A stretch of 64,000 nt of DNA from an uncultured delta proteobacterium (GTDB lineage: Bacteria; Desulfobacterota; Zymogenia; Zymogenales; Zymogenaceae): the NCBI GenBank assembly GCA_963735595.1, contig CAVTLK010000001.1:800001-864000 (forward strand). Direction: 5' to 3'. Below, one piece after another: positions 9,787 to 27,623 of this stretch. The position numbers and the translations under genes were made by a program. The notes under the pieces were generated by a model. That model was not told the origin of the DNA and ran no database searches. It was given only the letters and a program-made list of their open reading frames with translations. Position 1 is the stretch's first letter; every line of letters starts with the position of its first letter.

Positions 9787-10061
9787 TGGTCCCCCCATAG
9801 TTTAATGTATCAGCCGTCTATCCCTCATGCTTTCGAAGCCCGGTTGCGGTTCGTGGCGTAGTGTGATCCAAAGACCCCGGCGCATGATACGCGTACGATA
9901 CCCGCTCCCGGTCTATTTGTCAAAAAAAAGCGAAGGCATGCCGCGTTTTTCACGCGCGGCCCGTGTCCGTTTTCGCCGCATTGGCGCAATAGTCCCGATT
10001 AACGCGCCGCGGCTCAATAACTCTTGACTTGAGCCCCCGTATGTCGTAGAATTTTGACATT

Positions 10062-10931
10062 ATGAAAACAATCAGCAAAAAACCATCGGGTAAATTCGTT
10101 CGGGCGGCTCTCACCCTGTGTTTGGGGGCCGTTCTGGCTGCGCTCTTTTTCATGTCCTTGCCGGACGCTGCGCGTGCCTCCGAAGAAGACGCCCTCGTCC
10201 TCCTCAACGAGGGGTCAGCCTTCGTCCAGCAGGGGAAATACGACGAGGCGATAGACGTGCTCACGCGGGCAATCAAGGCGGATTTCCCGCCCGAATATAA
10301 CGTGGAATCGAACTACGGCCTTATCTATACCAACCGGGGACTTGCCTATTTCCGAAAGGGGTTCATCAAGGAGGCGCTCGCCGACTACGACACGGCCGTA
10401 GCGCTTGACCCGAATAATCCCGATACGCTCAACAACCGGGGTGTGTTAAAGCAAAGCAAAGGCGATACCGGGGGGGCGCTGGCCGATTACGGCGCGGCAA
10501 TCGCCACCAATGCCCTGCTGGCCTCGGCCTATATCAATAGGGCATCCCTTCTCATCGAGATGAAACGCCCCTCCGAGGCCCTCAAGGATCTCAATAACTA
10601 CATCTTGCTGGTGGCCGACAACCCCGATGTCTATAACCTGCGGGGAAGAATCTACCTCGACCAGGGCAAGCGCGAGCTTGCCGCCGCGGATTTCAACCGG
10701 GCGTTGTTCCTGGCGCCCGGAAATCGGGACGCCTCCCTCAACCTCGGACGCCTCTTTATCGCCTCCCGGGAATACTCCCGCGCGGAGGAGACGATCTCTC
10801 GTGTCCTTGCCGTAAATCCCGATGACGCCGAGGCCTATCTCCTGAGGTCAAAGGCCCGCGACGGGCTCGGCAATACAGCGGGCGCACAGGCCGACAGGAC
10901 GAAGGCAAAGGAGATCAACCCTAATTTATAG
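10062..10931 (+). CDS. Exported tetratricopeptide-repeat protein
   Basis: Signal-peptide-like N-terminus followed by about 7 TPR units (YTNRGLAYF...ALADYDTAVALDP). Promoter TTGACT-N17-TAGAAT at 10024-10052. Confidence 0.85.
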   Translation: MKTISKKPSGKFVRAALTLCLGAVLAALFFMSLPDAARASEEDALVLLNEGSAFVQQGKYDEAIDVLTRAIKADFPPEYNVESNYGLIYTNRGLAYFRKGFIKEALADYDTAVALDPNNPDTLNNRGVLKQSKGDTGGALADYGAAIATNALLASAYINRASLLIEMKRPSEALKDLNNYILLVADNPDVYNLRGRIYLDQGKRELAAADFNRALFLAPGNRDASLNLGRLFIASREYSRAEETISRVLAVNPDDAEAYLLRSKARDGLGNTAGAQADRTKAKEINPNL

Positions 10932-11033
10932 CGTGCCGGCCCAATGAGGGCGGCCCGATAGATTCACGGAACTCGTGAACTCGTGATAGAGCGGTCATAT
11001 CACAGAGCGTAAAAACCAAATGAGGAGGTATAT

Positions 11034-11270
11034 ATGACGGCACAACAATCCGGAGGACAGTCTGGCGGCTCGTCTGGCGGCGGCTTTAAAGGATCGAGCG
11101 GCGGCAGCGGCGGCGGTGTCAGCCGGTTCTTCAACCGTCCGACGACCTCTACTGGCGGCGAAAAAAAGGGCGGCTGCTGCAGCAGCATTACGGGCATCAT
11201 CATCACGGTGATCATCGCGGGCATCATCGTCCTTTACTTCCTGTTCAGGGGCTGTACCAGCATGTTTTAG
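11034..11270 (+). CDS. Small Gly/Ser-rich single-pass membrane protein, function unknown
   Basis: GAGGAGG RBS, one hydrophobic helix flanked by Cys residues, and a terminator directly downstream. Confidence 0.65.
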   Translation: MTAQQSGGQSGGSSGGGFKGSSGGSGGGVSRFFNRPTTSTGGEKKGGCCSSITGIIITVIIAGIIVLYFLFRGCTSMF

Positions 11271-11302
11271 CCCGTCGCCCGCCCACCATGTTTTGTTACA
11301 AT

Positions 11303-11339
11303 AGAAAAGGGCTTACAGCGGATGTAAGTCCTTTTCTTT
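11303..11339 (+). terminator. Intrinsic terminator, probably bidirectional
   Basis: AGAAAAGGGCTTACA-GCGGA-TGTAAGTCCTTTTCT hairpin with a U-rich tail. Confidence 0.7.
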
Positions 11340-11479
11340 CCGGGCCCGTGCGGGCCCTGTCGGTAGTATATCCGCGCCGAAACGGCGCCCCGTTTCGCGG
11401 GATCGGCCGTCCCTCCGCATCCGTGGGGTGGGGCGATCTCAGTCGGTTAACGCCCATAATTCAATAACAGTGATACGCT

Positions 11480-12944
11480 ATGGTTAGTATCCCCCGGTGC
11501 ATGAGCACCCAGCATCCCGATAACGTCACGACCCCTTTCTTTGCAGAGAGCGCCGAGCTCGGGGGGAAGACGAGGTCCAGGAGGCCTATTACGCCTACTC
11601 GCACCTTATCTGCGATGAGCAGATGTGGGACTGCGAGGGAAAGGAGGTCGATAACTACGTCGTCAAGAAGCTCCTGACGAAGTATGACTCGTTCTTCAAG
11701 GAGCACCGGCTCGGCAAGGACCTCTTCCTGACGCTCAGGGTCCCCAACCCGACGGTCGAAAAGGCGGAAGCCAAGGTCCTCCTCGAAACGCTGGAGAGTA
11801 TACCCCGCTCGTATGACGCGGCCCATCTCTTCTACAATCAGGACATCGCCCCAATCTTCGAGGTTATCCTCCCGATGACGGCGTCCGCCCGGTCTATCGA
11901 TCGTATCCATCGCTACTACACCGAATTTATCATCAAGCGGCAGGACCTGCCATTTCGTGAGGGAGACATACGCATCAGGGACTGGATAGGGTCCTTCAAA
12001 CCCGAAGAGATAAACGTCATCCCGCTGTTCGAGGAGCGGGACAAGATGCTCGATCGCGCACCGCATGGTCAGGGAGTATCTCTCCGACAAGCCGGGCATT
12101 ACCGACCAGCGGGTCTTCCTTGCCCGGTCGGACCCGGCGATGAACTACGGGCTGGTGGCGGCGGTGCTCTTAAACAAGATCGCGCTGATGCGTCTCTCGG
12201 ACCTCTCCAAAGTTACCGGCGTGGCCCTCTACCCGATCATCGGCGTGGGGTCGGCGCCGTTTCGGGGAAACCTCGCCCCCCATACCGTGAAGCGGGTGAT
12301 CGAGGAATATCCGAGCGCCCATACCTTCACCATACAGTCGTCGTTCAAATACGACCATCCGCCCCAGGCCGTGGTCGAGGCGGTCAGGACGCTCAGGGAA
12401 AGAAAGACGGGAAGCCCCATGCCCGTGGACGATAGACGGTGCCTCTCGGTCATAGACCGGTACTCCGCCCGCTTCTACGAACAGATCTCTCGCCTTGCCC
12501 CGATCATCAACGAGGCGGCCGCCCATGTCCCCGAGCGCAGGAAGCGGAAAGCTCCACATAGGGCTCTTCGGCTACTCCCGGGAAACGGCGGGCATCAAGC
12601 TGCCCCGGGCGATCAGGTTCACCGCAGCCCTCTATTCGGTCGGCATCCCGCCGGAACTCCTGGCGCTGTCCGCCCTCACGAAGGAGGATATGGCGCTGCT
12701 CAGGGAGTTCTATATTCACCTGGACGACGACATATGGGACGCGCTCAGGTACTTCAACCCGGAGAGCCCCTTTGTGCCGGAGGGCGTCTCGGCGTTCCTG
12801 GGGCCGTACGCCGGCGACGTTTCTCCCAACCCGGAACACAAGGAGCTGACCGACCGCATCGCGGGTCACCTCAAGGCCGGCAAGACCGGCAACATCGCCG
12901 AGCACGTGCTGGCGGCGGCAAACGTGCGGGGGTTTTTGGGGTAG
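11480..12944 (+). CDS. ppcA: Archaeal-type phosphoenolpyruvate carboxylase; frameshifts at ~11565, ~12057 and ~12548
   Basis: IPRCMSTQHPDN, EQMWDCEGK, IFEVILPMT, VIPLFE, RVFLARSDPAMNYG, IIGVGSAPFRG, RKLHIGLFGYSR and LPRAIRFTAALYSVGIPPE, across four segments. Confidence 0.92.
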
Positions 12945-13036
12945 TTTCTTATTAACGGGAATCCCGTAGTCTTCTTTGTGCCTTAGTGTCTTTGTGGTTT
13001 TCTCTTCCCCTGGTTCTTGAATCGATAGGAGTCTTT

Positions 13037-13723
13037 ATGTCCAAGACTATCGGAATGATCGGCGGGCTTTCGCCGGAATCGACCGTCACCTATTATGAGC
13101 ATATAACCCGCGGCTGTTACCGGCGGACGGGCGACTACCCCAACATCGTCATCCGGTCGGTCGACCTGACCGCCTATACCGCATGGTTTTCCGCCGGTCA
13201 GTGGGACCGGGCCGGCAACGACATGGCGGCGATCTTCGAACAGATGCGGACTATCGGCGTCGACTTCGGCCTGATCTGCGCCAATACGCCCCACCGGGCG
13301 CTCCCGTTCGTCGACGCGGGAACGAGGCTCCCGATCCTCTCGATCATCGAGGCAACGGCGGACGCGATTACAATGGTCGGGATGAAGACGGTCGCGCTCC
13401 TGGGGACGAAATTCACCATGAAGGAGGATTTCTACAAGGAGGGCCTCTCGGAACGGGGGATTACCGCCGCCGTGCCGAACGCCAATGAGATGGAAGCCGT
13501 AAACCGGGTCATCTACGAAGAGCTGGTAAAGGGGATTATAAAAGACGAGAGCCGCAGGTTGGTAAAGGCGGTCATAGAGCGGCTCGTCGACGAGGGCGCG
13601 CAGGGCGTTATCCTCGGCTGCACGGAGCTGCCACTGTTGATCGGGCAAAAGGACCTGACCGTCCCGGTGTTCGACACGACGCGGATTCACGCGGAGGCGG
13701 CGCTGAACAAAGCGCTGGAATAG
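13037..13723 (+). CDS. Aspartate/glutamate racemase family protein
   Basis: IGMIGGLSPEST, two catalytic Cys motifs (CANTPH and LGCTELP), and LLGTKFTM. AGGAG RBS. Confidence 0.9.
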   Translation: MSKTIGMIGGLSPESTVTYYEHITRGCYRRTGDYPNIVIRSVDLTAYTAWFSAGQWDRAGNDMAAIFEQMRTIGVDFGLICANTPHRALPFVDAGTRLPILSIIEATADAITMVGMKTVALLGTKFTMKEDFYKEGLSERGITAAVPNANEMEAVNRVIYEELVKGIIKDESRRLVKAVIERLVDEGAQGVILGCTELPLLIGQKDLTVPVFDTTRIHAEAALNKALE

Positions 13724-13728
13724 CGGAT

Positions 13729-13814
13729 ACGAATTAAGGGGACACCATACGTAATTAATGGAATGTCGGTTTTAACGTGAATCGTTAATTACGTATGGTG
13801 TTCCCTTAATTCGT
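13729..13814. repeat. AT-rich palindromic element (MITE/REP-like), copy 1
   Basis: Arm ACGAATTAAGGGGACACCATACGTAATTAA (13729-13758) is complementary to 13785-13814 at 29 of 30 positions. Confidence 0.85.
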
Positions 13815-13834
13815 CCCATAATTCGTAACAAGAC

Positions 13835-14998
13835 CTACTTTTTGATCGGGTACCCCCCCTCTTCCCACACCGTCTCCAACATAACCTTTATCTTCGATAC
13901 GTCCATATCCGGGTGGTCGTGGACGGGGCCGATGATGAACCGCCCGCCCGGCCCGCAGAGCTTGATGAGCCGTCGCGTCTCGGCCCGGACCTCGTCCGGC
14001 GTGGAGCGTGTCGTCAGGATATAGTCGATACCCACGCCGCCCACGATGGTGAACCGGTCGCCGTGGACCCGCTTTTCGTGGGCGATATCCACCGTGCTCG
14101 TGTTCTCGTAGGCGTGGCCGCCGTCAAACCCCCACTTGATGAAGAGGTCAAAGATCTTCGTGTTGTCCCCGCAGGAGTGGATCAGGATTTTGCCTCCCCG
14201 GTCGTGCACCGCCTTGCACAGCCGGGTATAAATCGGGCCGAAAAGCTCGTCAATGGCCTCGGGGCTGATCATGGGGCCGGTCTTGTAGGAAAAATCGTCC
14301 CCCTTCAGGATCACCTTGATGCCCGCGTCCATGGCTGCCATCTGCGTCTTCATGACGTATTCGTCGTTATAGGCGATGAGCTTCTTGAGGTAGTCCGACC
14401 TCCGTTTCAGGTTCACCGAAAAGGCGGGAAACCCCATCATCTGGATGAGGATCTCGAAGGCCCCGCTTGCCACGTCGCCCATGAGGCATATCTTGTCGCC
14501 GTACCGCTTCTGCGCGTCCTTGTAGAAAGTGTAGGCCATGTGGGCAAGCTCGTCGATGTCCTGGTGGTAGGGCCAGGCGTCGTAGGCCTCCGGGGTGGGG
14601 ATCGCCGGCCCCCGAAACATGAAGTACATATTCCCGTAGCCGTCGTCTATCCAGTCCATGTAGCAGCCGAGGGTCTTGGCCAGGGTCTTGCTGTCCCAGA
14701 CCATGATCGTGGCCTCGTAGCTGACCCAGTCGGCGTCAAAGCCGAGCGCGACGGCCGCCTCGATCCGCTTCTTCAGGCCCCCGGCGATGAAGGGGTCGGC
14801 CAGGATCTTTTTCAACTTTTTGCCCCACCGGTCGGTGATGAAACGGGAGACGGGGTTCATGAAGATCGTTTTTGCCGGGATGAGCGGTTTCCCAAGCACC
14901 TGCTGGACGGGCCAGTCGTCGAGGCTCGCGCTAAAGGTCGGGATCCGGTCGACCGGTTTTCCTTCGATCTGTCTGAAGACGCGTTCGGTAGGGTCCAT
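13835..14998 (-). CDS. URO-D/MtaA-CmuA superfamily protein, paralog 1
   Basis: MDPTERV...DRIP N-terminus, GDDFSYKTGPMISP, IHSCGD, IVGGVG and GGRFIIGP. Confidence 0.85.
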   Translation of the reverse strand: MDPTERVFRQIEGKPVDRIPTFSASLDDWPVQQVLGKPLIPAKTIFMNPVSRFITDRWGKKLKKILADPFIAGGLKKRIEAAVALGFDADWVSYEATIMVWDSKTLAKTLGCYMDWIDDGYGNMYFMFRGPAIPTPEAYDAWPYHQDIDELAHMAYTFYKDAQKRYGDKICLMGDVASGAFEILIQMMGFPAFSVNLKRRSDYLKKLIAYNDEYVMKTQMAAMDAGIKVILKGDDFSYKTGPMISPEAIDELFGPIYTRLCKAVHDRGGKILIHSCGDNTKIFDLFIKWGFDGGHAYENTSTVDIAHEKRVHGDRFTIVGGVGIDYILTTRSTPDEVRAETRRLIKLCGPGGRFIIGPVHDHPDMDVSKIKVMLETVWEEGGYPIKK

Positions 14999-15083
14999 GG
15001 GTAATCCTTTAGTGTTGGAAGAGTTAGGAAATTAAGGGGATTGCTTCGCGGCTCCCCACAATGACGTACGTGAGGGCGTATCC

Positions 15084-16247
15084 TTACCCCCGGATCGGAT
15101 ACTTACCGTGCTCCCACACCGTCTCTAACATGACCTTCACCTTTTCCATGTCCATATCCGGGTGGTCGTGGACGGGGCCGATCAAAAACCGCCCGCCCGG
15201 CCCGCAGGCCTTGATCAGCTTCTTTGTCTCGTCGGCCACTTCCTCGGGCGTGGAACGCCTAGTGAGGAGGTAGTCCACCCCCACCCCGCCGACGATGGTG
15301 AAGCGGTCGCCGTGGACCTTCTTTCTCGTGGTAGATGTCCACGTTGGAAGTATTCTCGTAGGCGTGCCCGCCGTCAAAGCCCCACTCGATGAAACTATCG
15401 AACATCTTCGTGTTATCGCCGCAGGAGTGAAGCAGTATCCGCCCCCCCGGTCGTGCACGGCCTTCGTGATGCGCCGGTACGACGGCCCGAAGAGCTCGTC
15501 GGCAACCTTCGGGTTCATCATCGGCCCGGTCTTGAAGGCCATGTCGTCGCCGTCAAATATCACCCGCACCCCCGCGTCCATCATGGCCATGTTGGTCTTC
15601 ATGACGAGGGCTTCGAGGTAGGCGGTGAACCGCCTGATCATCTCGGGCTCCCGCCTGATGAAGACCGGCATCCGCTCGAACCCGAACGACCAGAGCATTG
15701 TCTCGTGGATGCCGAAGGCCGCCTGCCCCAGGATGCAGATTTTATCTCCGTATTTCCTGACGATCTTCGTGAAGAACTTGTAGGTAGCTTGCGCCAGGTC
15801 GTCAAGATCGGGGAAATGGGGCCATGCCTCGTAATCCGCTTTTGTCTTGAATGCCGGCCCCCGGTACATGTACCAGGAGTTGCCGTGGCCGTCGTCTACG
15901 ATGTCGTAGAACGACCCGGTCACCCGCGCCATCGTTTTGCCGTCCCAGAGCATGAGCATCCGCTCGAAAAGCCCCACCACCGAATCGAACTTGAGCGAAA
16001 CCGCCGCCTCGACGTTCTGGCCCATCATAACGTCGAGCAGGGGATAAAGCATCATCCCGGAAAGCCGCTTCCCCCACCGGTCGAGGATAAAACCGGTGAC
16101 CGGGTTCATCATGAAAATGGATTTCCCGATCATCGATTTGCCGATGACCTGCTGCACCGGGCCGTAATCGAGGTAGTACGAAAAGGTCGCGACCCGGTCG
16201 GTCTCTTTGCCGTCAATGGCGGCGATCACGCGCTCGGTAGGGTCCAT
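15084..16247 (-). CDS. URO-D/MtaA-CmuA superfamily protein, paralog 2; compensating indels at ~15445 and ~15322
   Basis: Colinear with paralog 1. The segment ILLHSCGDN...WGFDGGHAYENTSNVDIYHE lies in a shifted frame between a G-run and an A-run. Confidence 0.85.
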   Translation of the reverse strand: MDPTERVIAAIDGKETDRVATFSYYLDYGPVQQVIGKSMIGKSIFMMNPVTGFILDRWGKRLSGMMLYPLLDVMMGQNVEAAVSLKFDSVVGLFERMLMLWDGKTMARVTGSFYDIVDDGHGNSWYMYRGPAFKTKADYEAWPHFPDLDDLAQATYKFFTKIVRKYGDKICILGQAAFGIHETMLWSFGFERMPVFIRREPEMIRRFTAYLEALVMKTNMAMMDAGVRVIFDGDDMAFKTGPMMNPKVADELFGPSYRRITKAVHDRGGGYCFTPAAITRRCSIVSSSGALTAGTPTRILPTWTSTTRKKVHGDRFTIVGGVGVDYLLTRRSTPEEVADETKKLIKACGPGGRFLIGPVHDHPDMDMEKVKVMLETVWEHGKYPIRG

Positions 16248-16286
16248 CGTGCTGCTCCTTGAATGAGAGTAATCGATAATACGGCA

Positions 16287-16370
16287 GAATTAAGGTGACA
16301 CCATGCTTAATTAGTAATTCGTTAATTCAAAAATCGAAGGCAATAATTAAGTATGGTGTTACCGTAATCC
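16287..16370. repeat. AT-rich palindromic element, copy 2 (same family as 13729-13814)
   Basis: GAATTAAGGTGACACCATGCTTAATTA (16287-16313) is complementary to 16344-16370 at 23 of 27 positions. Confidence 0.8.
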
Positions 16371-16384
16371 CCGGCGGGACGACC

Positions 16385-19300
16385 TCACGTCCCCAGCAGC
16401 CCCTCCCGCACGTCTTCTACGCTCCGGGATGCCTCGTACCACTTCTCAAAGTGCCGGTCCATGATAAAGAGGTAGAAAAGCGAATCGGGGCGGATGATCT
16501 CGTAGACCTCCGTAACCTCGCGCTTCTGGGTACCGGCATAGTCGATAATACCGGCATACCGGAACATCTCAACGTGCCTGGCCTCCCCGTGCTGCTCCAC
16601 CCCGAATATCAGATAGATCTCCGTTCCGTCGTAAGCGAAGATTTTATCGAAGTCCGCCTTGAGTTCCCCGCGCTGAACGCGCCTGTCGAAGAAGTAGAAC
16701 CGATCCCGGCAGCCCCTGATATACTCCCGGAGCGCTTCTTCGGACAGGGCCTCACCGAGGTTGTAGATATCCGTGTTCTCGGAGATAAAGCCCTCTTCCA
16801 GGAGGTTTTCATCTACGCCGAAGATACCGTCAAAGGGCTCCGGACCCGACCCGTTGCCGCCGCTCTCCCGGAGATCCGCCCCTTCGGACGGGACGGCCCC
16901 GACCGCAGGCCTCACAAAGCGGTCGGCTTCTTCATCCAGCGGCTTAATTATGGACAGCGTATTGCCGATGATCACGTCAAACGGGTAGATCAGATTCGGG
17001 TTGTGCGCCTCCATCCGTTTCTTTTCAAGGAAGCGCTCGATCCGTTTCTTCACGCTCCTGTTTCGCTGCGCACCCCGGGAGGCTTCGTTGATCTTATCGG
17101 CGATGCTCACCTTGATATCACCCCAGAGGTCGTCGTAGAGCGTGATGATCTCCGATACTCCGCCGAACGAGATGTAGAGGCCCGTATTCACGCCGAGATC
17201 GGATATCTCCCCGATCCGCTCGTAATAGGTCTGGTTTATCTCACGCTCCTTTGCCCGTACATCGGCAAGCATCCCTTTCAGACGGTCGATCTGATTGAGC
17301 TCGTCCTGGCAGACCTCCGTGTAAAACTCCTTCGAGCGCTTAACGAGGTCCTGCTTTTCTACCTCATTTACCAGCTCGTCCCGGGAGGCCTTGATCAGTG
17401 CGAGCTGTTCCCTGAGCTCAGTTTCATGGGCGAGGCGGTTGTCCCGTTCGGGAGTATTCGCCGCGTCCCTGATCTGCTGGGACACGAGGCCGATCGCATC
17501 AATGTGGTCCTGGATCGTCTCATCAAAGAGCTTCATCTGCGCTTCCAGCATCGCCTGGGGAGACATCGAGCGCTTGGATTCGACAATACGGTCCAGCGCC
17601 TTGATCGTTCCGACGAGCTGCTTTTTCTGCTTGGTGATAGTTACCAGGTCGCTCTTATATTCATCCAACTGGCGCTGGCGCATGAGCTTTTCGTCGAAAT
17701 CGGGATTGTTTCTCAACAGCTCCCGCTTGTATTCGGCGGTGATAATCTGGATCTCTTTTGCCAGTTCCACGAGGGCAACGACGTTCCCCGAGAATGTAAT
17801 CGCGTCCCCCAGAAGGTTATTGAGTTCAATGCCGAGGGAGCGCTCCCTGCCGATCTTGAGGTGGTATCGTTTGGCGGCGGCCAGGATAGGCACGTAAAAC
17901 TCGTTCTTGAGAAAGTCGGCCATAACGTGGCTTCCCGACCGTTTTGTGCGTTTGGTAAATCCCTTCAAATCGACGAAGAGGTGCCCCTCCTTCATCTCCT
18001 CGGTCTTAATCAGGAACACCTTGTGATCGCCGCCAAAACGATAGAGCCTGCCCGCATCATATTCCCGGATCAGCTCTTTCAGGGGAATCTGCCGCTTCCG
18101 GTTCTCCAGGAGCCGTTTAGACGCGGCGAAATAGGAATCGTAGCCGAACTCCATGCGATAGACAATGTAGCGCTTGACGATCTCGGAGATCTGGAAGGTG
18201 AGCGTCTCTTTGCCGACGGAAAAGATCCGTATGAGCCCCCACCGGCGGTGGGTCTTGAAATTGGTCGTGATCTTCTTGATCTTATTAACCCGCCCCTCGT
18301 CCCGCCGATACCGGTCGACCTGTTCCGCAAGGCCCGTTTCGACTCGCGAGGCGAGTTTCGAATCCTCCCAGAGCGCCCTCAGGAGCTTATCGTCCTGGGC
18401 GATCTCCGAAAAGAGGATATGGATGCCTTCCTTCTGGTTGTCAAAGCTGATGAGGTAGTCAAGGATATCGTCCCGAAACGACCCGATGCTATGGAACTCG
18501 ATGATCTGTTCGGTCAGCGTCTTATCCCGCATAATCTGGTCGACCATGCCCTTGGTTACGTCGACGATGCTGTGGGCCTTGCGGGCGGCCTGGTTATACA
18601 CGTCTTCGAGGCTCGAGGCTATCTTCGGCGTGAGGTTATAGGGGTTGAGGTCATTGCCGAGGATGGCGCTCTTGATGTTGAGGACGAAAAAGGGGGTTGC
18701 CGTTGAAAGGAGGAGATATTCCATCTCCTTGAAATCATGGGAAAGCCGTTTGCCCTTGAAGGACGAAAACACCTCCGTGACGACCGCGCGTATGACGTTG
18801 GAATAAAGGATACTGATGGATCTGTCCAGTTTCTCGTACGATAGTCCCCGGATCTTGACCCCCTTGATGATTTCCTTCTTATCGTTGAGGATGGAAGCAA
18901 CGGCCAGGTGGACCAACAGCGAAGTACGTTCCGACGCACCGAGGCGCATTTCTTCCTCGATGGCCTTTTTGTAGATACGTAAGAGCTCCGATATGAATTG
19001 GCGGCCGTGGAGCGAGGGGGAAAACCAACTGGCGATGAGCCCCGCGTCGATCAGGGGATCGGAATAGACCGTGGAGACGGCAATCTCGGTTTCAAGGCGG
19101 TTCTTAAACACGCCGGCGACCCGGTACCCCTTTTGCAGAAGCTTGACCCGCTCATCCGACACCGAGACGACAATCGATCCGCGTTCGTCGTAGACCATTG
19201 ACGGCTCGAAGCGGCCCTTCATGAGCGAGGCCAGCTCCCGGGTTGCCTCCTCGAAGATCTCTTCGGCTCCACCGCCGAAGATAAAGGGAATTCGTATGTC

Positions 19301-19453
19301 GTAGTCGGACTCGCCCAGACAGAAGCGGACCGAATCCCGCCTCAGGCTCAAGAGATCCCTTCCCTGTATGCCTTTCTGGCGGACGTAGGCAAGGATGTCT
19401 TCGAAAAGGGCCGCCCTCTTATCGAGGAGCTGATCTCTGAAACCTGATTCCAT
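16385..19453 (-). CDS. ~1020-aa protein with a C-terminal class III nucleotide-cyclase-like domain interrupted by a coiled coil
   Basis: GHLFVDLKGFT, NLLGDAITF, GLYISFG, KINEASRG, ALSEEA and TEVYEI occur in cyclase order. Start placed at ATG 19453, just after the radical SAM stop. Confidence 0.7.
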   Translation of the reverse strand: MESGFRDQLLDKRAALFEDILAYVRQKGIQGRDLLSLRRDSVRFCLGESDYDIRIPFIFGGGAEEIFEEATRELASLMKGRFEPSMVYDERGSIVVSVSDERVKLLQKGYRVAGVFKNRLETEIAVSTVYSDPLIDAGLIASWFSPSLHGRQFISELLRIYKKAIEEEMRLGASERTSLLVHLAVASILNDKKEIIKGVKIRGLSYEKLDRSISILYSNVIRAVVTEVFSSFKGKRLSHDFKEMEYLLLSTATPFFVLNIKSAILGNDLNPYNLTPKIASSLEDVYNQAARKAHSIVDVTKGMVDQIMRDKTLTEQIIEFHSIGSFRDDILDYLISFDNQKEGIHILFSEIAQDDKLLRALWEDSKLASRVETGLAEQVDRYRRDEGRVNKIKKITTNFKTHRRWGLIRIFSVGKETLTFQISEIVKRYIVYRMEFGYDSYFAASKRLLENRKRQIPLKELIREYDAGRLYRFGGDHKVFLIKTEEMKEGHLFVDLKGFTKRTKRSGSHVMADFLKNEFYVPILAAAKRYHLKIGRERSLGIELNNLLGDAITFSGNVVALVELAKEIQIITAEYKRELLRNNPDFDEKLMRQRQLDEYKSDLVTITKQKKQLVGTIKALDRIVESKRSMSPQAMLEAQMKLFDETIQDHIDAIGLVSQQIRDAANTPERDNRLAHETELREQLALIKASRDELVNEVEKQDLVKRSKEFYTEVCQDELNQIDRLKGMLADVRAKEREINQTYYERIGEISDLGVNTGLYISFGGVSEIITLYDDLWGDIKVSIADKINEASRGAQRNRSVKKRIERFLEKKRMEAHNPNLIYPFDVIIGNTLSIIKPLDEEADRFVRPAVGAVPSEGADLRESGGNGSGPEPFDGIFGVDENLLEEGFISENTDIYNLGEALSEEALREYIRGCRDRFYFFDRRVQRGELKADFDKIFAYDGTEIYLIFGVEQHGEARHVEMFRYAGIIDYAGTQKREVTEVYEIIRPDSLFYLFIMDRHFEKWYEASRSVEDVREGLLGT

Positions 19454-19470
19454 GAATCGGTCTATTATCC

Positions 19471-20343
19471 TTATAATCCGCGAAGATGTTCCGGTCGAAG
19501 GAGATCCGTCCTGTTTTGGGAAAGGACATGTCGGATAATCGAGAGGGCCTGTTCCTTTTCCTGCGGCAGCCTGATCCTCAGCGGGAGGTAATTGGAGGCA
19601 TGGTTCGAGGTAAACAGGCAATCGGTGACATCGGTATGGGTTAACATCGCCCCCAGCTCCTCGAGGAGCCCCCAGGTATCGGGCAGTACATACTCACCCC
19701 GCACCTGCCGCTCGGCCAGTGGAGTCCCCGGCACGACCATAACGGTGAGCGCGCCGATATAGTCCGGGTTCATTTCCGAGAGAACCTTTCCGCTCTGCTC
19801 GGCGTGAACGATGCTTCTTTCAATCCCCGCGATCCCGACCAATACCGTGACCGATAATAGTATACCGGCCTCCCGCACCCGGTGGGCCGCCTCAATCATA
19901 GCCGGGACGTCTGCTCCCTTCCGGATTTCATCGAGGACCTGCGGGTCACCGCTCTCAAGCCCGAGGTAGACGATACCGAGCCCCATGTCCTTTAGCTCAC
20001 TAAGCTCTTCCGGGCTTTTCTTGAGGATGCTCTTGGCGTTACCGTAGACGCCGATCCTCTCGATATCGGGAAAGGACGCGTTAATCTCGGCAACGATAGG
20101 CGCCAGCATACGCTGGGGGATGATGAGGGCGTCGCCGTCGGCTAAAAAGACCCGCCTGACACCTCGGTACCGGCGCGCCCCGTCCAGGTCTTCGCGGATC
20201 TCCTCTATGCTCCGGATTCTGAAACGCTTCCCTTTATAGGTGGGACAAAACGTGCACCGGTTATGGGAGCATCCGAGGGTCACCTGAAGTATGAGGCTGC
20301 CCGCTTCGCTGGGTGGGCGTATGACAATGCCTTCGTATCTCAT
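19471..20343 (-). CDS. Radical SAM protein, function unknown
   Basis: IRPPSEA..LILQVTLGCSHNRCTFC, FLADGDAL, YLGLESG and SNHASNYL. Confidence 0.88.
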   Translation of the reverse strand: MRYEGIVIRPPSEAGSLILQVTLGCSHNRCTFCPTYKGKRFRIRSIEEIREDLDGARRYRGVRRVFLADGDALIIPQRMLAPIVAEINASFPDIERIGVYGNAKSILKKSPEELSELKDMGLGIVYLGLESGDPQVLDEIRKGADVPAMIEAAHRVREAGILLSVTVLVGIAGIERSIVHAEQSGKVLSEMNPDYIGALTVMVVPGTPLAERQVRGEYVLPDTWGLLEELGAMLTHTDVTDCLFTSNHASNYLPLRIRLPQEKEQALSIIRHVLSQNRTDLLRPEHLRGL

Positions 20344-20449
20344 TTCGATGTGCGGGCGCGACCGCCGCGTTATCGCGTCGGCTGTTACGCGCGCCTGGCG
20401 CGGGTAACAACCGGCAGGCGATTTTCACGGGCAGGGCCTTCGTATCTTC

Positions 20450-20827
20450 CTATTTCTTCTTTCTTGTCGCCGGGGCCTTTTTCTTTTCCTTGGCGTCCGT
20501 CGGCGCCGCCGTGTCCGGCTCTCCGGGCTGCAGCGCCTCTGTCTGCGGCCCCGCGGCAAGCTCCGCCTTGAGCTTCGTGTTTTCCTTCCGGAGCTTCCGG
20601 TTATTTATGCTGAGGGACGTCCGCTCGATAACCTCCAAAAGCGACATCACGATGATCGTGATCAGTATGGCGATGTAGAAAAACGCGAAGAGCGGAAGCT
20701 CAAACGATTGATAGGTCACCCCGCCGTACGAAAGCAAGACCAGGGAAGTCGGCGCCTGATTGTAATGGGCGAAGATCACCAGGATCAACAGGACGATCGC
20801 AAACAGGATAATTTTAATATACTTCAT
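20450..20827 (-). CDS. LapA-family membrane protein
   Basis: Two transmembrane segments with FAHYN, then a coiled-coil tail (RKLRKENTKLKAEL). Directly follows the HIT gene. Confidence 0.65.
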   Translation of the reverse strand: MKYIKIILFAIVLLILVIFAHYNQAPTSLVLLSYGGVTYQSFELPLFAFFYIAILITIIVMSLLEVIERTSLSINNRKLRKENTKLKAELAAGPQTEALQPGEPDTAAPTDAKEKKKAPATRKKK

Positions 20828-21345
20828 AGTCCCTCCTCACGCAATGGTGCCGTCCGATACGCGTCCAGCAGCTTGTCGTAAGTCGATTGTATATGCTCGG
20901 AGATAACCTTTACCTCTCCGATAACCGGCATGAAATTAGTGTCGCCGTCCCAGCGGGGAACGACGTGTACGTGCAGGTGATCCTCCACGCCGGCGCCCGC
21001 CGTCTTACCGAGGTTGAGCCCGATATTAAAACCGTGGGGATTCATGGTTCTGTGAAAGACGTCAATAAACGCCTGGACAAACCCGAATATTTCCGCGATC
21101 TCGTTTTGATCGAGGCTTCCGAAATCCCCCGTATGCCGGATCGGCGCCACCATCAGATGGCCGTTATTATAGGGATACTTATTCATGATGACAAAGGAAC
21201 GGCTCCCCCGCGCGAGGATGAGGTTGCCCCGATCGTCGGCCTGGGCAAACCGGTTGCAGAAAATACACCCCTTCTCTTTTTGCCCGGCAATATACTCCAT
21301 CCTCCACGGCGCCCAGAGGATCTCGCGGTGATCGGTGTCGCTCAA
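20824..21345 (-). CDS. HIT family hydrolase (Ap4A phosphorylase type)
   Basis: LWAPWRMEYI, CIFC, NKYPYNNGHLM and HLHVHVVPRW. Probable TTG start overlaps the upstream stop. Confidence 0.9.
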   Translation of the reverse strand: MSDTDHREILWAPWRMEYIAGQKEKGCIFCNRFAQADDRGNLILARGSRSFVIMNKYPYNNGHLMVAPIRHTGDFGSLDQNEIAEIFGFVQAFIDVFHRTMNPHGFNIGLNLGKTAGAGVEDHLHVHVVPRWDGDTNFMPVIGEVKVISEHIQSTYDKLLDAYRTAPLREEGL

Positions 21346-21827
21346 ATCTCCTGGATCTCCCCGGTTATCGTGTTGTTGGCGATAGTCAGAAACCCGAGCG
21401 TATTCTTCTCGGCAAATCGTTTGTCGGTTGGGGACCCGGGGTTGAGCATAAGGACGCCCTGCTGGTTTCCGAGAAACGGGGCATGGCTGTGGCCGAATAC
21501 AATGCAGTCGACCGTGTCGGACCGGAATTCTTCCAAGACCCGTACCGGCAGCCCGTCGGGGGACCCCCAGCCGTGGGTGATACCGATTCGCTTTCCTTCC
21601 AGTTCTTCGATCCTTTTCCCCGGCAGCGACTCGGCCAGCGTCCCGCGATCCATGTTGCCTCTCACGGCCATGAGGTGCCACGTCGAAAGGAAGCGAAAGA
21701 CGCTCTCCTCGACGATATCACCGGCGTGGACAATCACGTCCACGTCGGAAAAGTAGCGCCGCACCAATCGGGTAAACCGATCGTCAACGGCGGTCAGGTG
21801 CGTGTCAGATATGACACCGATCTTCAT
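21342..21827 (-). CDS. YfcE/MJ0936-type metallophosphoesterase
   Basis: SDTH, HAGD, RGNMD, THG, FGHSH and NPGS. Confidence 0.9.
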   Translation of the reverse strand: MKIGVISDTHLTAVDDRFTRLVRRYFSDVDVIVHAGDIVEESVFRFLSTWHLMAVRGNMDRGTLAESLPGKRIEELEGKRIGITHGWGSPDGLPVRVLEEFRSDTVDCIVFGHSHAPFLGNQQGVLMLNPGSPTDKRFAEKNTLGFLTIANNTITGEIQEI

Positions 21828-21847
21828 GCCAATTCTCCGATGCCACA

Positions 21848-21917
21848 CTATAGAATAAAAGCGCGAATAAATCAACAGTAAAAACTATTTGCGCCCAAAA
21901 ACCGCCGGTGGTACAAT
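21848..21917. promoter_or_regulatory. Back-to-back promoters for yfcE (-) and dciA (+)
   Basis: Minus strand TTGATT-N17-TATAGT. Plus strand TTGCGC (21889), 17-nt spacer, TACAAT (21912-21917) with extended TG. Confidence 0.5.
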
Positions 21918-21922
21918 CACCT

Positions 21923-22249
21923 ATGACCCGCGACGATGATACCGGAACTCCTTCCAGGCTGTCGGACATCCTGAGCGCAATCCTCAAGGACAGGGGATGG
22001 AACAGGGTCGTCAGGGAGCACCGGGTCTTTGAGGAATGGGACGGAGCCGTCGGCGCGATTATCGCGAAAAACGCCCAGCCGGTCAGGATCGATCGGGGCG
22101 TGATTGTGGCGGTCGTCACGAGCCCGGTATGGACCCAGGAGCTGTCACTGCTCAAGGAAACGATCATCGGGCGGCTCAATGACCGTCTCGGTGAGCCGCT
22201 GGTGTCAGATATCCGGTTTATTCAGGGAGAGATACCCGGCGATTCGTAG
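21923..22249 (+). CDS. dciA: DUF721/DciA family protein
   Basis: WDGAVG..IA.NAQP, V.SPVWTQEL and I..RLN...DIRF. Confidence 0.75.
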   Translation: MTRDDDTGTPSRLSDILSAILKDRGWNRVVREHRVFEEWDGAVGAIIAKNAQPVRIDRGVIVAVVTSPVWTQELSLLKETIIGRLNDRLGEPLVSDIRFIQGEIPGDS

Positions 22250-22397
22250 GAGCCTGCGGTAGACACGCGCCCTGCTCGGGGTTTATACTCTAACCCGCAA
22301 CGACCGGTGGCTTGACCGCGGGCGTCCTTCGACGGCCTTTTCGCGGCATCACCGCTTCCGGGGCTGTGCCGAGGAGGGCCGGGGTTGAAAGGAGATA

Positions 22398-22736
22398 TCA
22401 GGCCGGCGGGTTCTGACAGACCAGGGTTACCTCGTTGATCCACCGGACGTAGTCATCCAGCGCGTGGGTGATAGGAAGCGAGATGATCTCCGGTATCTTG
22501 TAGCTGTGGAGCCCCTGGATGGCCTGCTTCACCTGCTCGAAGAGCTCGGCGCGGGTCTTGATAATCAACAGGTATTCCTCGCTGGATTCAACCTTCCCTT
22601 CCCACGTGTAAATCGACCGCATATTCGGGATGATGCTCACGCAGGCCGCCAGCTTTGTATTCACCAGTTCGTTTGCAATCTTATCGGCTTCGTTCTGACT
22701 GCTTGCCGACACCAGCACTACCGAAGAACCAGTCAT
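22398..22736 (-). CDS. cutA: Divalent-cation tolerance protein CutA
   Basis: KLAACV, SIYTWEGKVE and LHSYKIPEII. Confidence 0.92.
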   Translation of the reverse strand: MTGSSVVLVSASSQNEADKIANELVNTKLAACVSIIPNMRSIYTWEGKVESSEEYLLIIKTRAELFEQVKQAIQGLHSYKIPEIISLPITHALDDYVRWINEVTLVCQNPPA

Positions 22737-22765
22737 AGCGCCTCCTCATGGATCATGGGCGAACG

Positions 22766-24106
22766 TTATGGACCAGCATGCCGGTCTTTCCTGATACCGT
22801 CAATCTTCTCCGTCCAGGATCGTATCTCCTCCAGGGCCCTGTTGGCGATATATCGTTTCCTATCCTTCTTCCGTACCTCGGGCGGGGGACTTGAAAAGAG
22901 CCCGAAATTGATGTTCATCGGCTGAAAATCCCCGCCGCGGGCTTCGGTTATATAAGAAACCAGGCTGCCAATCGCGCTGCTTCGCGGAGGGACGAGCGGC
23001 CCCTCCCCCAGGGCAAGGAGACCCGCGTTGAGCCCCGCGACGATACCCATTGCCGCCGATTCAACGTACCCCTCGACTCCCACCAGCTGTCCCGTTAAAA
23101 AAAAGCCCGGCCTTGTCTTGATCTCGAGGGTCGGAAAAATAATCCGGGGAGCGTTGATAAAGGTGTTTCGGTGGATGCTTCCGTATCGTGCGAACTGGGC
23201 GTTTTCCAGGCCCGGGATCATCCGAAATATCCGCTCCTGGTCTTTTTGTTTGAGCCGCGTCTGAAATCCGACCATATTGAAGAGGGTTCCTTCGCTGTTC
23301 TCATGTCTCAGCTGAACCACCGCGAAGGGACGAAGCCCCGTCTTGGGGTCGGTCAATCCCACCGGCTTCATCGGGCCGAACGCAAGCGTATCATCTCCGC
23401 GTTTTACCATGACCTCGATGGGCAGGCACCCTTCGAAGATCTTGGTGTCCTCAAACGAGTGGGGGAGCACCTCGTCGGCGCGTTTGACCTCCCGTATGAA
23501 CCGGTAGTAGCACTCCTCGGTCAGCGGCAGATTGATGTAGTCGTCGCCCCCCTTGTCGTAGCGCGAGCCCATGAAGGCAACCTCCATGTTGATACTCTCG
23601 GCCGTGACAATGGGTGAGATGGCGTCGTAAAAAAACAGGTTATCCTTGCCCGTTACCCGGATGATCGCTTCGGCAAGGGCGTCGGAAGTCAGGGGGCCGG
23701 TAGCCACCACCGTGGGAACGTCCTCGGGCAGTGATGTAATTTCCTGTCTGACGACTGTGACCGCCGGATGCGCGCTCATCCGCTCGGTAATGGCGGAAGA
23801 GAACCGCTCCCTATCCACCGCCAGCGCCGAGCCCGCCGGAACCCTGGTTTGGTGGGCGGCGGCAATTATGATCGAATCAAGCGTCTCCATCTCGCGTTTG
23901 AGAATCCCTGAGGCATTTTCGGTTGACTCGGCTCTCAACGAATTGCTGCACACGAGCTCCGCCATTGCCTGGTTGGTATGCGCCGGCGAAAACTTCGTCG
24001 GTTTCATTTCGTAGAGGGTAACGGCCACCCCCATGTTGGCCGCCCGCCACGCGGCCTCGCAACCGGCAAGACCGGCGCCGATCACGGTGATGTGGGGTCG
24101 TTTCAT
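22766..24106 (-). CDS. trmFO: Folate/FAD-dependent tRNA m5U54 methyltransferase
   Basis: GAGLAGCEAA, AELVCSNS, FEGCLPIE, FGPMKPVGL, HRNTFIN and GVEGYVESAA. Confidence 0.96.
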   Translation of the reverse strand: MKRPHITVIGAGLAGCEAAWRAANMGVAVTLYEMKPTKFSPAHTNQAMAELVCSNSLRAESTENASGILKREMETLDSIIIAAAHQTRVPAGSALAVDRERFSSAITERMSAHPAVTVVRQEITSLPEDVPTVVATGPLTSDALAEAIIRVTGKDNLFFYDAISPIVTAESINMEVAFMGSRYDKGGDDYINLPLTEECYYRFIREVKRADEVLPHSFEDTKIFEGCLPIEVMVKRGDDTLAFGPMKPVGLTDPKTGLRPFAVVQLRHENSEGTLFNMVGFQTRLKQKDQERIFRMIPGLENAQFARYGSIHRNTFINAPRIIFPTLEIKTRPGFFLTGQLVGVEGYVESAAMGIVAGLNAGLLALGEGPLVPPRSSAIGSLVSYITEARGGDFQPMNINFGLFSSPPPEVRKKDRKRYIANRALEEIRSWTEKIDGIRKDRHAGP

Positions 24107-26400
24107 GAGGCGCCCGGCTCCTTCTTGACGTCAATACGCTCCGAATAGCCGCACCCCTCCGCCGGGCAGACCAGCATCTGGTCCTCCCCCTTCTTCTCCT
24201 TGAGCGTCATGAACGGCGAGCCGCACTTCGGACATGGTTTATTAAAGGGCTTGTTGGAGATGATATATTTGCAGTCGGGATATCGCGAGCACCCGTAAAA
24301 CGCCCTCCCCTTCGTCCTGCCCTTGCTGCTCCTGCGCTCGATGAGGGTGCCCGCCTTGCACTCGGGGCAGGTTACGCCGGTATCCACCGCCTTCTTGAGA
24401 GACTTGATGTTCCTGCATTCCGGGTATCCCGTGCACCCGAGGAACGGCCCGAACCTGCCCTTCTTTACCTGCATGGGCTTTCCGCACTTGTCGCAGATCT
24501 CCTCGGTCGCCGGGACCTCCTGGACGTCGCCCTCCAGCGGCGCGACGTATCGGCAGTCCGGGTATCCGTTGCAGGCGTAGAACCTCCCGTACCTCCCCAG
24601 CTTGATGACAACCTGCTTGCCGCAGAGGGGGCAGGTCTTATCCGTCGGCTGGGTGGTGATATCGCTCTTCTTGATCTCCTTATCCTTGCTGATGATCAGG
24701 TTATTGAAGGGTTCCCAGAAGTCCTTGATCATAGGCCGCCACTGTATCAGGCCCGCGGCGATATTGTCCAGGTCCTCTTCCATGTGGGCGGTAAATCCGT
24801 AGTCGACGTACCGGTTGAAGTGCGCCACCAACAGATCGTTGACCACCATGCCGATATCCTCGGGGAAAAACCGTCTCTCTTTGAGCGTAACGTATTGGCG
24901 CGTCTTGAGGGTATTGATGATCCCCGCGTAGGTAGAGGGCCGTCCGATGCCGTATTCCTCCAGCGCCTTGATGAGGGTCGCCTCGGAGTACCGGGGGGGC
25001 GGCGCCGTAAAATGCTGTTCCGGTACGATCCCGATGGCCGTGAGTGGATCGTCCGGCGCAAGGGTCGGCAACTTCGTCTCCCGATCCTCGGCCTCGTCGT
25101 CGACCCCCTCCAGATAGACCTTCGAAAAACCCGGGAACTTCACCGTGTATCCGGTCGATCGGAAAGTGTAGCCGTTATCGCTGACGATATCCACCGAGAC
25201 CGAGTCGAGGATCTGTTCGGACATCTGGGACGCAATCGTCCGTTTCCAGACGAGTTCGTAAAGCCTCAGCTCATCCTTGGTCAGGTATTTCCTGACCGAC
25301 TCCGGGGTTCGCGCGAGCGACGTGGGACGGATCGCCTCGTGGGCCTCCTGGGCGCCCTTGGCCTTCGCCCGATAGAACCGCGGTTTGGCCAGGGCGTACG
25401 ATTCCCCGAAGAGCCCGACGATAACCTGCCGCGCTTCGGCCAGCGCCGACGCGGCGATCTGGACACTGTCGGTCCTCATGTACGTAATCAGGCCGACCAT
25501 AGAATCGCCGATTTCCTTGCCCTCGTAGAGCTTCTGGGCCACGTCCATCGTCTTTTTCGCGAAAAATCCGAGCTTTCGGGACGCCTCCTGCTGGAGCGTG
25601 CTGGTGATAAACGGGGGAGGAGGCGTTCGCCGGACGTCTTTGCGCCGAACCTCGCCTACCCTGAACACCGCCCGGTCCAGCGCATCGACGACGGCCAGCG
25701 CCGCCGCCTCGTCGGCGATATCGAATTTATCGTATTTCTTTCCGTCGCGCGCCGTCAGCGTCGCGGTGAAGGGCTCATACGCGCCCTCCTTGGTGAATAT
25801 CCCCTCGACCGTCCAGAATTCCCGGGGAGCAAATCCCTCTATTTCCCGCTCCCGCTCGCAGATTATCCTCAACGCAACCGACTGTACCCTGCCGGCCGAC
25901 AGGCGGTATCGGATCTTTTTCCAGAGCAGCGGGGAGAGGTTGAAACCCACCAGGTAGTCGAGGATGACGCGCGCCTGCTGGGCGTCAACAAGGTTCTGGG
26001 AGATAGCTCGGGGGTTGGCGAAGGCCGCCTGTATGGCGTCCTTCGTTACCTCGGAAAAGACGACCCGGTGCACCGTTACGCCCTTCGTATCCCCGTCATC
26101 AATCCCGAGGACCGCGGCAAGATGCCAGGCGATCGCCTCGCCCTCTCGGTCAAGGTCGGTCGCCAGGTAGACCGTGGTAACGCCTTTCATCTCGGCCACG
26201 ATGCGGTCGATGTATTTCTTCTTTTCCTCGAGAACTTCGTAGACGGGGGTGAAGTCATGGTCAACGTCCACCGAGCCGTCCTTGCTGGGCAGCGAACGCA
26301 CGTGCCCGTACGATGCCACCACCTTGTAGGAGGCGCCGAGGTATTTCTCGATGGTCTTGGCCTTGGCCGGCGATTCGACGATAACCAGTGACTTTGCCAT
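24103..26400 (-). CDS. topA: DNA topoisomerase I with C-terminal zinc ribbons
   Basis: LVIVESPAKAKTI, DLDREGEAI, SAGRVQS, ITYMRTDS, GIGRPSTY and C4 zinc ribbons. Confidence 0.97.
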   Translation of the reverse strand: MAKSLVIVESPAKAKTIEKYLGASYKVVASYGHVRSLPSKDGSVDVDHDFTPVYEVLEEKKKYIDRIVAEMKGVTTVYLATDLDREGEAIAWHLAAVLGIDDGDTKGVTVHRVVFSEVTKDAIQAAFANPRAISQNLVDAQQARVILDYLVGFNLSPLLWKKIRYRLSAGRVQSVALRIICEREREIEGFAPREFWTVEGIFTKEGAYEPFTATLTARDGKKYDKFDIADEAAALAVVDALDRAVFRVGEVRRKDVRRTPPPPFITSTLQQEASRKLGFFAKKTMDVAQKLYEGKEIGDSMVGLITYMRTDSVQIAASALAEARQVIVGLFGESYALAKPRFYRAKAKGAQEAHEAIRPTSLARTPESVRKYLTKDELRLYELVWKRTIASQMSEQILDSVSVDIVSDNGYTFRSTGYTVKFPGFSKVYLEGVDDEAEDRETKLPTLAPDDPLTAIGIVPEQHFTAPPPRYSEATLIKALEEYGIGRPSTYAGIINTLKTRQYVTLKERRFFPEDIGMVVNDLLVAHFNRYVDYGFTAHMEEDLDNIAAGLIQWRPMIKDFWEPFNNLIISKDKEIKKSDITTQPTDKTCPLCGKQVVIKLGRYGRFYACNGYPDCRYVAPLEGDVQEVPATEEICDKCGKPMQVKKGRFGPFLGCTGYPECRNIKSLKKAVDTGVTCPECKAGTLIERRSSKGRTKGRAFYGCSRYPDCKYIISNKPFNKPCPKCGSPFMTLKEKKGEDQMLVCPAEGCGYSERIDVKKEPGAS

Positions 26401-26418
26401 AGTCAGCGTAAACCCGTT

Positions 26419-27525: not shown

Positions 27526-27567
27526 CGGGAAAAGAAGTATATAGCTTTTACCGTCTAAGTCAAGATG

Positions 27568-27597
27568 AAAAACGGCGCCGAGAATTCCCGACGCCGT
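27568..27597 (-). terminator. Intrinsic terminator after the LysM gene
   Basis: Minus strand ACGGCGTCGGGAATTCTCGGCGCCGT followed by a T-run. Confidence 0.55.
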
Positions 27598-27623
27598 GCG
27601 CGATATCTCCCGGGATTACCCGT

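Follow-up and report, generated by a model that had tools for sequence, protein, structure and literature searches.

A divergent subfamily of putative class III nucleotide cyclases in Zymogenaceae, Myxococcota and related bacteria

The 64,000-nucleotide stretch of DNA analysed here (the window; contig CAVTLK010000001.1 of assembly GCA_963735595.1, from an uncultured delta proteobacterium of the Zymogenaceae) carries, at 19453..16385 on the minus strand, a gene for a protein of 1022 amino acids (aa) with a predicted, divergent class III cyclase fold. Judged by its sequence, the protein probably belongs to a previously unmodelled subfamily of class III-type cyclases, which is chromosomal and single-copy. 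The evidence tips slightly towards a soluble homodimeric purine-nucleotide cyclase of class III type, with relaxed selectivity and cyclic AMP (cAMP) as the leading product, that would have a non-catalytic role as well. No description of the family was found in a literature search made mostly without subscription papers.

The gene, its domains and the fold of its core

The open reading frame (ORF) has no internal stops, its start Met is common to close homologs, which have lengths of 1019-1031 aa, and the window's genome holds one copy. Compared with two relatives, six of seven gene regions, including the helical insert described below, gave nonsynonymous substitution rates (dN) of 0.05-0.16 and synonymous rates (dS) of 0.76-2.9; fast evolution is confined to aa 836-890 (dN 0.46-0.51). 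This is a real, single-copy gene under purifying selection. The initial annotation of this DNA had seen no obvious transmembrane segment, and none was found in the protein by hydropathy (19-residue maximum 1.55). Conservation was assessed in 250 distinct homologs of at least 740 aa, a set that favours intact copies because it was gathered with intact queries; the 19-residue hydropathy exceeded 2.0 in one of these.

The N-terminal domain (aa 1-485; 17999..19453, on the minus strand like all parts of the gene) is mostly helical by propensity scan and was found in every full-length member aligned, including those with degenerate catalytic residues. Its conserved residues are R43, G47, P56, W143, G150, P254, R327, D435, G468 and Y471. 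It had been described as some 480 residues without a recognisable domain, and indeed it has no match in Pfam, NCBIfam or PDB; the shorter proteins that match it number only three, all fragments of close relatives. The first half of the core (aa 486-580; 17714..17998) contains the metal Asp residues 495 and 550 as well as Asn546, at the Lys/Glu base-selecting position. It is followed by insert 1 (aa 581-752; 17198..17713), a lineage-variable appendage, probably a helical hairpin or coiled coil, between alpha3 and beta4. The next segment (aa 753-797; 17063..17197) comprises beta4, the dimerisation-arm region and alpha4, with Val782 at the Asp/Thr/Cys position, the family-specific Lys/Arg787, and Asn789, Glu790, Arg793 and Arg797. 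Insert 2 (aa 798-892; 16778..17062) consists of a conserved helix and strand and then the fast-evolving, Gly/Pro-rich residues 836-890, and the C-terminal core (aa 893-1022; 16385..16777) of a YNxGxALS strand and helix, the beta7-beta8 loop and a terminal VYE strand.

A recount confirmed the separation of 239 aa between the second metal Asp and Asn789; Arg793 and Leu903 are 110 aa apart. Across the 250 homologs the first distance ranges from 72 to 239 aa (at most 95 in 17, at least 200 in 46), with insert 1 varying from none to about 165 aa, and Arg793 lies 24-110 aa from Asn898. Since its length varies by lineage, insert 1 is regarded as an appendage and not as a family-defining element. It was earlier proposed to be a coiled coil that controls dimerisation or localisation. 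The insert is indeed helical, charged and poor in Pro and Gly; its heptad periodicity, however, is weak and uneven (shuffle p of 0.06, 0.04, 0.88 and 0.02 for four helices), which suits a hairpin or bundle of helices more than a single long coiled coil. Natural members without the insert exist, and hence it is dispensable family-wide, for dimerisation too, which rules out a general need for it in pairing. With dN of 0.16 and dS of 1.15-1.25 against two relatives, it is under selection in the window's clade, yet not needed family-wide.

Three kinds of evidence support the assignment of the core to the class III type: profile comparison, the neighbours found by a language model, and residue covariation that reaches across the two inserts. 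A core profile of 23 short-insert members matched 25 canonical domains at 91.5% in hhalign (E 8e-7), where the N-terminal domain reached 0.06% and 20 column shuffles at most 1.7%; the first half of the core alone gave 91.8% (E 7e-7). The metal Asp residues align to the canonical class III Asp residues in two alignments. The alpha4 Asn and Arg are in register in one of them, the second profile comparison (56%), and shifted in the other. When a compact natural member was used as query, PF00211 was found on 27 of 30 named Atlas hits, with a top score of 0.95, while the full-length query gave a lead at 0.89 only. Covariation was computed on 404 rows, equivalent to about 241 effective ones. Of the 30 strongest couplings, 19 link elements that should be in contact in a cyclase fold, where 8.0 would be expected, and 12 of the top 20 do so against 2-6 in five shuffles; the test is partly circular because the contacts to be expected were listed only once the couplings had been computed. 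Couplings that span the inserts include K576-G754 (insert 1), A560-I896, I568-E901 and I761-E910. Four compact members already bear automatic annotations, either as class 3 adenylate cyclase or as nucleotidyl cyclase domain protein. Taken with the hydropathy, these results favour the soluble protein with a class III-type core that was first proposed.

Active-site residues and comparison with known systems

The catalytic positions recognised at the outset are found at exactly the codons given then: Asp495 (17971-17969) and Asp550 (17806-17804) as first and second metal Asp, and Asn789 (17089-17087) and Arg793 (17077-17075), the transition-state Arg, in alpha4. Asp495 is present in 250/250 homologs, Asp550 in 244, Asn789 in 242 and Arg793 in 244; all four occur together in 241 of the 250, which answers the check on conservation that had been suggested. 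The two base-selecting residues were likewise named correctly, as Asn546 (17818-17816; 232/250) and Val782 (17110-17108; 237/250). Further conserved residues are Lys/Arg787 (237/250), Glu790 (242/250), Arg797 (248/250) and Asn545 (83%).

Canonical base selection uses Lys with Asp/Thr in adenylyl cyclases or Glu with Cys/Ser in guanylyl cyclases (PMC7384201). The family has neither pair, but Asn546 and Val782. At the position of Asn546, four residues before the second Asp, 24 of 25 canonical controls have, by eye, Lys; Glu occurs at position 546 in 1/250 homologs. It has been reported for Ma1120 that single changes of the second specificity residue cut adenylyl cyclase turnover three- to fivefold and leave an adenylyl cyclase (PMC4215837). 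Hence, the Asn/Val pair alone implies no new product. The unusual nucleotide product that had been envisaged remains a hypothesis, against which speak this tolerance in Ma1120 and the absence of the PycC determinants described below.

Canonical PF00211 adenylyl and guanylyl cyclases (CyaB, CyaC, Cya2, Ma1120) resemble the family in the order and spacing of the metal Asp residues, the Asn/Arg pair and the C-terminal KG/YE-like motifs, inserts aside, and in an arm-length segment ahead of alpha4. Unlike them, the family has Asn/Val, two in-domain inserts and its own 480-aa N-terminal domain, lacks a membrane or sensor domain, lies below PF00211 detection even when free of inserts, and has lost the beta7-beta8 Lys in the window's clade. 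The mycobacterial enzymes Rv1900c and Rv0386 also have non-canonical active-site residues, with activity retained there, that of the family being predicted. The Lys position is occupied by Asn in Rv1900c and by Gln in Rv0386, and the latter, to go by the title of a cited paper, reportedly has a novel mode of substrate selection. Both differ from the family in their domain partners and in that the family has Val at the second position, and any kinship concerns the fold. Rv1900c has His for Asn, with purported adenylyl and guanylyl cyclase activity (PMC4886424).

PycC proteins likewise combine a class III core with specificity residues that are not of the purine type, and share Phe two residues before the first Asp. 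Their determinants near the second Asp were described as Arg/Gln (clade E), Lys/Phe (clade D) and Asp/Arg (clade B) (PMC11224242). These are absent from the family, which has Asn546, Leu548 and Ala551, positions being counted as offsets from the metal Asp and, for clade B, from an assumed Asp number; Leu548 corresponds to Gln in EaPycC and to Lys in AnPycC, and Asn546 to Arg in EaPycC. Unlike PycC, the family's gene encodes about 1000 aa and is a stable chromosomal gene amid housekeeping genes, without a PycTM or PycTIR neighbour. No receptor-effector gene for cyclic nucleoside monophosphates (cNMPs) was adjacent among the recurring annotated neighbours of 94 loci, and PADLOC gave no match for family members. 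A Pycsar-like defence role is thus ruled out by the absent pyrimidine determinants and receptor neighbours; the setting is one of housekeeping genes and not a defence island.

AdvA of Acinetobacter baumannii likewise combines a highly divergent cyclase fold and a coiled coil. It is reported to be membrane-anchored and inactive, lacking the catalytic residues and the arm (10.64898/2026.04.03.716176); most family members keep both and are soluble by prediction. By analogy, the degenerate orthologues may work like AdvA. DUF2652 is a further cyclase-like family recognised by profile methods only (PMC4886424), as is the present one, but its proteins are about 250 aa long, carry Lys/Glu or Glu/Lys pairs and occur in other phyla, and no PF10851 hit was obtained for the present family. 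The GG[DE]EF motif is absent (LLGDA instead), and there is no GGDEF Pfam hit. By the residues that define these classes, the family is not a canonical adenylyl cyclase, guanylyl cyclase, PycC or GGDEF protein.

Distribution, degenerate members and cyclic nucleotide-binding proteins

Homolog searches returned 36 and 192 relatives, and a second, Archangium-like query returned 303. The named carriers are Candidatus Zymogenaceae, other Deltaproteobacteria/Thermodesulfobacteriota and Myxococcota, with Archangium, Vitiosangium and Anaeromyxobacter paludicola as cultured ones. The family was found in 19/201 genomes of the window's phylum, including 6/6 of the window's own family, in 51/201 genomes of a Myxococcota sample and in 22/201 from the family of an Archangium-like genome; plasmid and phage collections gave no match. 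The distribution is patchy, yet stable inside lineages. Identity with FrgA of Myxococcus xanthus, a lead from its size, was not supported: no Myxococcus was among the minority of named records in the best 120 of the 303 matches.

Of the 51 Myxococcota matches, 48 were read, three fragments being left out: 38 have intact D/D/N/R, seven are degenerate, two are split over two frames and one ends at a contig edge. Degenerate full-length members make up 2/10 in another family. On a tree of the N-terminal domain, with rows chosen after earlier results, the degenerate label takes five changes, at least four of them forced, and a single clade was rejected (approximately unbiased test, p 1e-48). Since L086, P0066 and others carry milder changes and may be active, the safe count is at least two clear losses; catalytic degeneration of full-length orthologues thus appears to have arisen repeatedly. 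The copy in locus L101 is degenerate, though its gene order equals that of the intact L041 and L074. Five genomes with degenerate copies were tested and have 2-8 canonical cyclase matches each, so the losses could reflect redundancy. Among broken copies, that at L003:8001-11068 is frameshifted by two extra bases relative to the window, and those in L154 and L160 switch frame near the border of N-terminal domain and core, by assembly error or a real split.

In one bacterial family, here called f13, 12 of the 13 genomes carry the gene, and PF00211 is missing from all 13. Class I and CYTH cyclases were absent in 2/2 f13 genomes tested and DUF2652 in 5/5, and a canonical-cyclase profile gave no real match in five. 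D/D/N/R and Lys/Arg973 are retained in each of the eight f13 members read. Eight f13 genomes have a standalone domain for cNMP binding whose phosphate cassette contains both Glu and Arg, a ninth copy not being among those read; genome G421 (80% complete) is without the gene and without any Arg-bearing cNMP domain. In the window's phylum, a protein with tetratricopeptide repeats and tandem cyclic nucleotide-binding domains (TPR-tandem-CNBD), present in 48/201 genomes, was found in 17/19 genomes with the family versus 31/182 without it. Its gene (G000 C5:376984-378342; L182, L191, L193, L200) is flanked by a lolE-like and a lolD-like gene, after which comes a bamA-like gene (neighbours assigned by eye); the protein is weakly similar to the N-terminus of SgmX, and no publication on it was found.

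Probable function, alternatives and surroundings of the gene

From the conserved residues we infer a mechanism in which two cores would form a head-to-tail pair: one chain would bind two metals through Asp495 and Asp550, while the other would orient the ribose and stabilise the transition state through Asn789 and Arg793. A purine nucleoside triphosphate (NTP) would be converted to a 3',5'-cNMP, most likely cAMP; with Asn546 and Val782 in place of Lys and Asp/Thr, the selectivity for the base would be relaxed. In favour of this reading count the profile, Atlas and covariation results, the conservation of D/D/N/R, the Ma1120 result and the f13 pattern, in which Arg-bearing cNMP-binding domains are kept although no canonical class III cyclase is present. 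The N-terminal domain of some 480 aa is likely a regulator or partner-binding part, and both inserts would be surface appendages. Since full-length degenerate orthologues persist, a non-catalytic role is proposed as well. If the proteins are active, standard domain models overlook this subfamily of cyclases, and genomes scored as cyclase-free (13/13 in f13) may use cyclic nucleotides nonetheless. The Asn/Val pair, shared across the family, offers a natural experiment on base choice by class III enzymes, and the intact, Lys-less and degenerate orthologues of one gene form a series for the question of how an enzyme becomes a pseudoenzyme; the family is testable because cultured carriers exist.

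Several observations weigh against an active cAMP-forming cyclase. A beta7-beta8 loop Lys positions the triphosphate in class III cyclases (PMC2576301). Outside the window's clade the family has Lys or Arg there (223/227), but this residue is gone from all 23 sequences of the window's clade, which have Ala, Thr or Val (Ala973 in the window copy, codon 16537-16535), in a register that rests on motif only (2.4% in hhalign). The window clade's enzyme is possibly slower for this reason, unless the nearby Lys977 and Arg978 compensate, as they may. Neither this loss nor the degenerate full-length orthologues had figured in the initial annotation. For family members, Pfam and NCBIfam gave no match above the cut-off, and sequence and profile searches of PDB yielded no cyclase; the second and third core segments alone score only 1-2%, and the Asn/Arg half alone 1.1%, mis-registered in one of two alignments. 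PF00211 matches 0/48 isolated first halves of the core, and as these are free of inserts, the divergence is intrinsic. Family f13 is one lineage, in which another unrecognised cyclase could exist, classes II, V and VI not having been searched. The presence of a canonical cyclase in 31/31 genomes that have the TPR-tandem-CNBD protein and lack the family speaks for the cAMP reading, but is weakened by the high PF00211 background (9/13 genomes, a small sample) and by kin genomes that are not independent. The second cassette Arg of that protein is replaced by His in 10/10 f13 copies, where 38/42 copies elsewhere have Arg; this counts against cAMP, since a loss of cAMP would produce the same change, and the first cassette keeps its Arg in f13.

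Part of this evidence would suit a nucleotide-binding switch or scaffold, i.e., a fold that binds NTP and metal, serves mainly a structural or regulatory function by way of the N-terminal domain and the inserts, and forms little or no cNMP. The degenerate members in two samples, their repeated origin on the tree, the case of L101, the His of the f13 receptors, Ala973 and the precedent of AdvA (10.64898/2026.04.03.716176) all point in that direction. We consider it unlikely, as exactly the catalytic set, transition-state Arg included, is strongly conserved in most members, redundancy with canonical cyclases could account for the losses, and AdvA lacks the residues and arm that the family keeps. 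It is rather improbable that the enzyme makes a non-canonical product (cUMP, cCMP, cIMP, a 2',3'-linked nucleotide or a cyclic dinucleotide) chosen by Asn545/Asn546, Val782, Lys/Arg787, Glu790 and Arg797. Where counted, they show 93-99% conservation (83% for Asn545) and are unlike those of all 25 canonical domains aligned, the f13 receptor change could be a ligand switch, and an HD-domain phosphodiesterase-like gene lies beside one subclade; but Leu548 and Asn546 are not PycC determinants, no dedicated receptor or effector adjoins the gene in the 94 loci, and neither a GGDEF motif nor a PADLOC, plasmid or phage match was found. The most far-reaching form of this idea, quite improbable in our estimate, is that the Asn/Val/Lys/Glu/Arg set selects a non-canonical substrate or product, and that the protein would supply Myxococcota and Desulfobacterota-like bacteria with a second messenger not described so far; in f13 it would be the sole cyclase, with the second site of the TPR-tandem-CNBD protein re-tuned from Arg to His. 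A resemblance by chance or only in part, with motifs that assemble no cyclase fold, would agree with the missing database hits and the low scores of the later core segments, but is very improbable in view of the hhalign and Atlas scores, the register match, the covariation and the automatic cyclase names of compact members.

A Shine-Dalgarno-like AAGGA, read from the sequence, is present at 19468..19472 (minus strand), 14 nucleotides 5' of the ATG, and overlaps the stop codon of the upstream gene. An antisense ORF of 803 aa at 16295-18706 (plus strand) was treated as a shadow. A promoter and terminator scan gave nothing informative at the cyclase-like gene, and there were no Rfam matches in window positions 10000-28000. 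Upstream and co-oriented are radical SAM, LapA-like, HIT hydrolase and YfcE-family phosphodiesterase genes (19471..21875, minus strand); that the gene forms a conserved operon with those for radical SAM, HIT and YfcE proteins was ruled out, the arrangement being lineage-specific and limited to the window's close relatives.

The neighbourhood set comprised 94 loci, some duplicated and many short. No general neighbour was found; the commonest is a convergent LarE-like gene (28 loci), and a radical SAM gene lies upstream in 7/94. A co-oriented CAP/YkwD-like gene occurs in 18 Myxococcota loci (L007-L011, L017, L026-L030, L041, L045, L051, L069, L074, L076, L099 and L101); its product is secreted-looking, and the gene is directly upstream, often within a few bases. 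Degenerate members and the intact L100 precede a gene for a 730-aa protein without Pfam or NCBIfam hit (L088, L089, L090, L091, L093, L100); in this group an HD-domain phosphodiesterase-like gene follows in three loci, and a Ser/Thr kinase is nearby. In one Archangium-like genome (L096:5566-7395), transcription diverges between the gene and that of a canonical dCache-HAMP class III cyclase. Elsewhere in the genome from which the window comes, two separate frames match a canonical class III cyclase (G000 C1:203973-204445). Within the window, an archaeal-type phosphoenolpyruvate carboxylase (PF14010) at 11623-12944 (plus strand) is split over three frames, probably by assembly indels. A URO-D-like gene at 15084-16247 (minus strand) has about 40 residues near its end that seem, by eye, out of frame relative to the tandem paralog at 13835-14998, and this stretch resembles the effect of two compensating indels.

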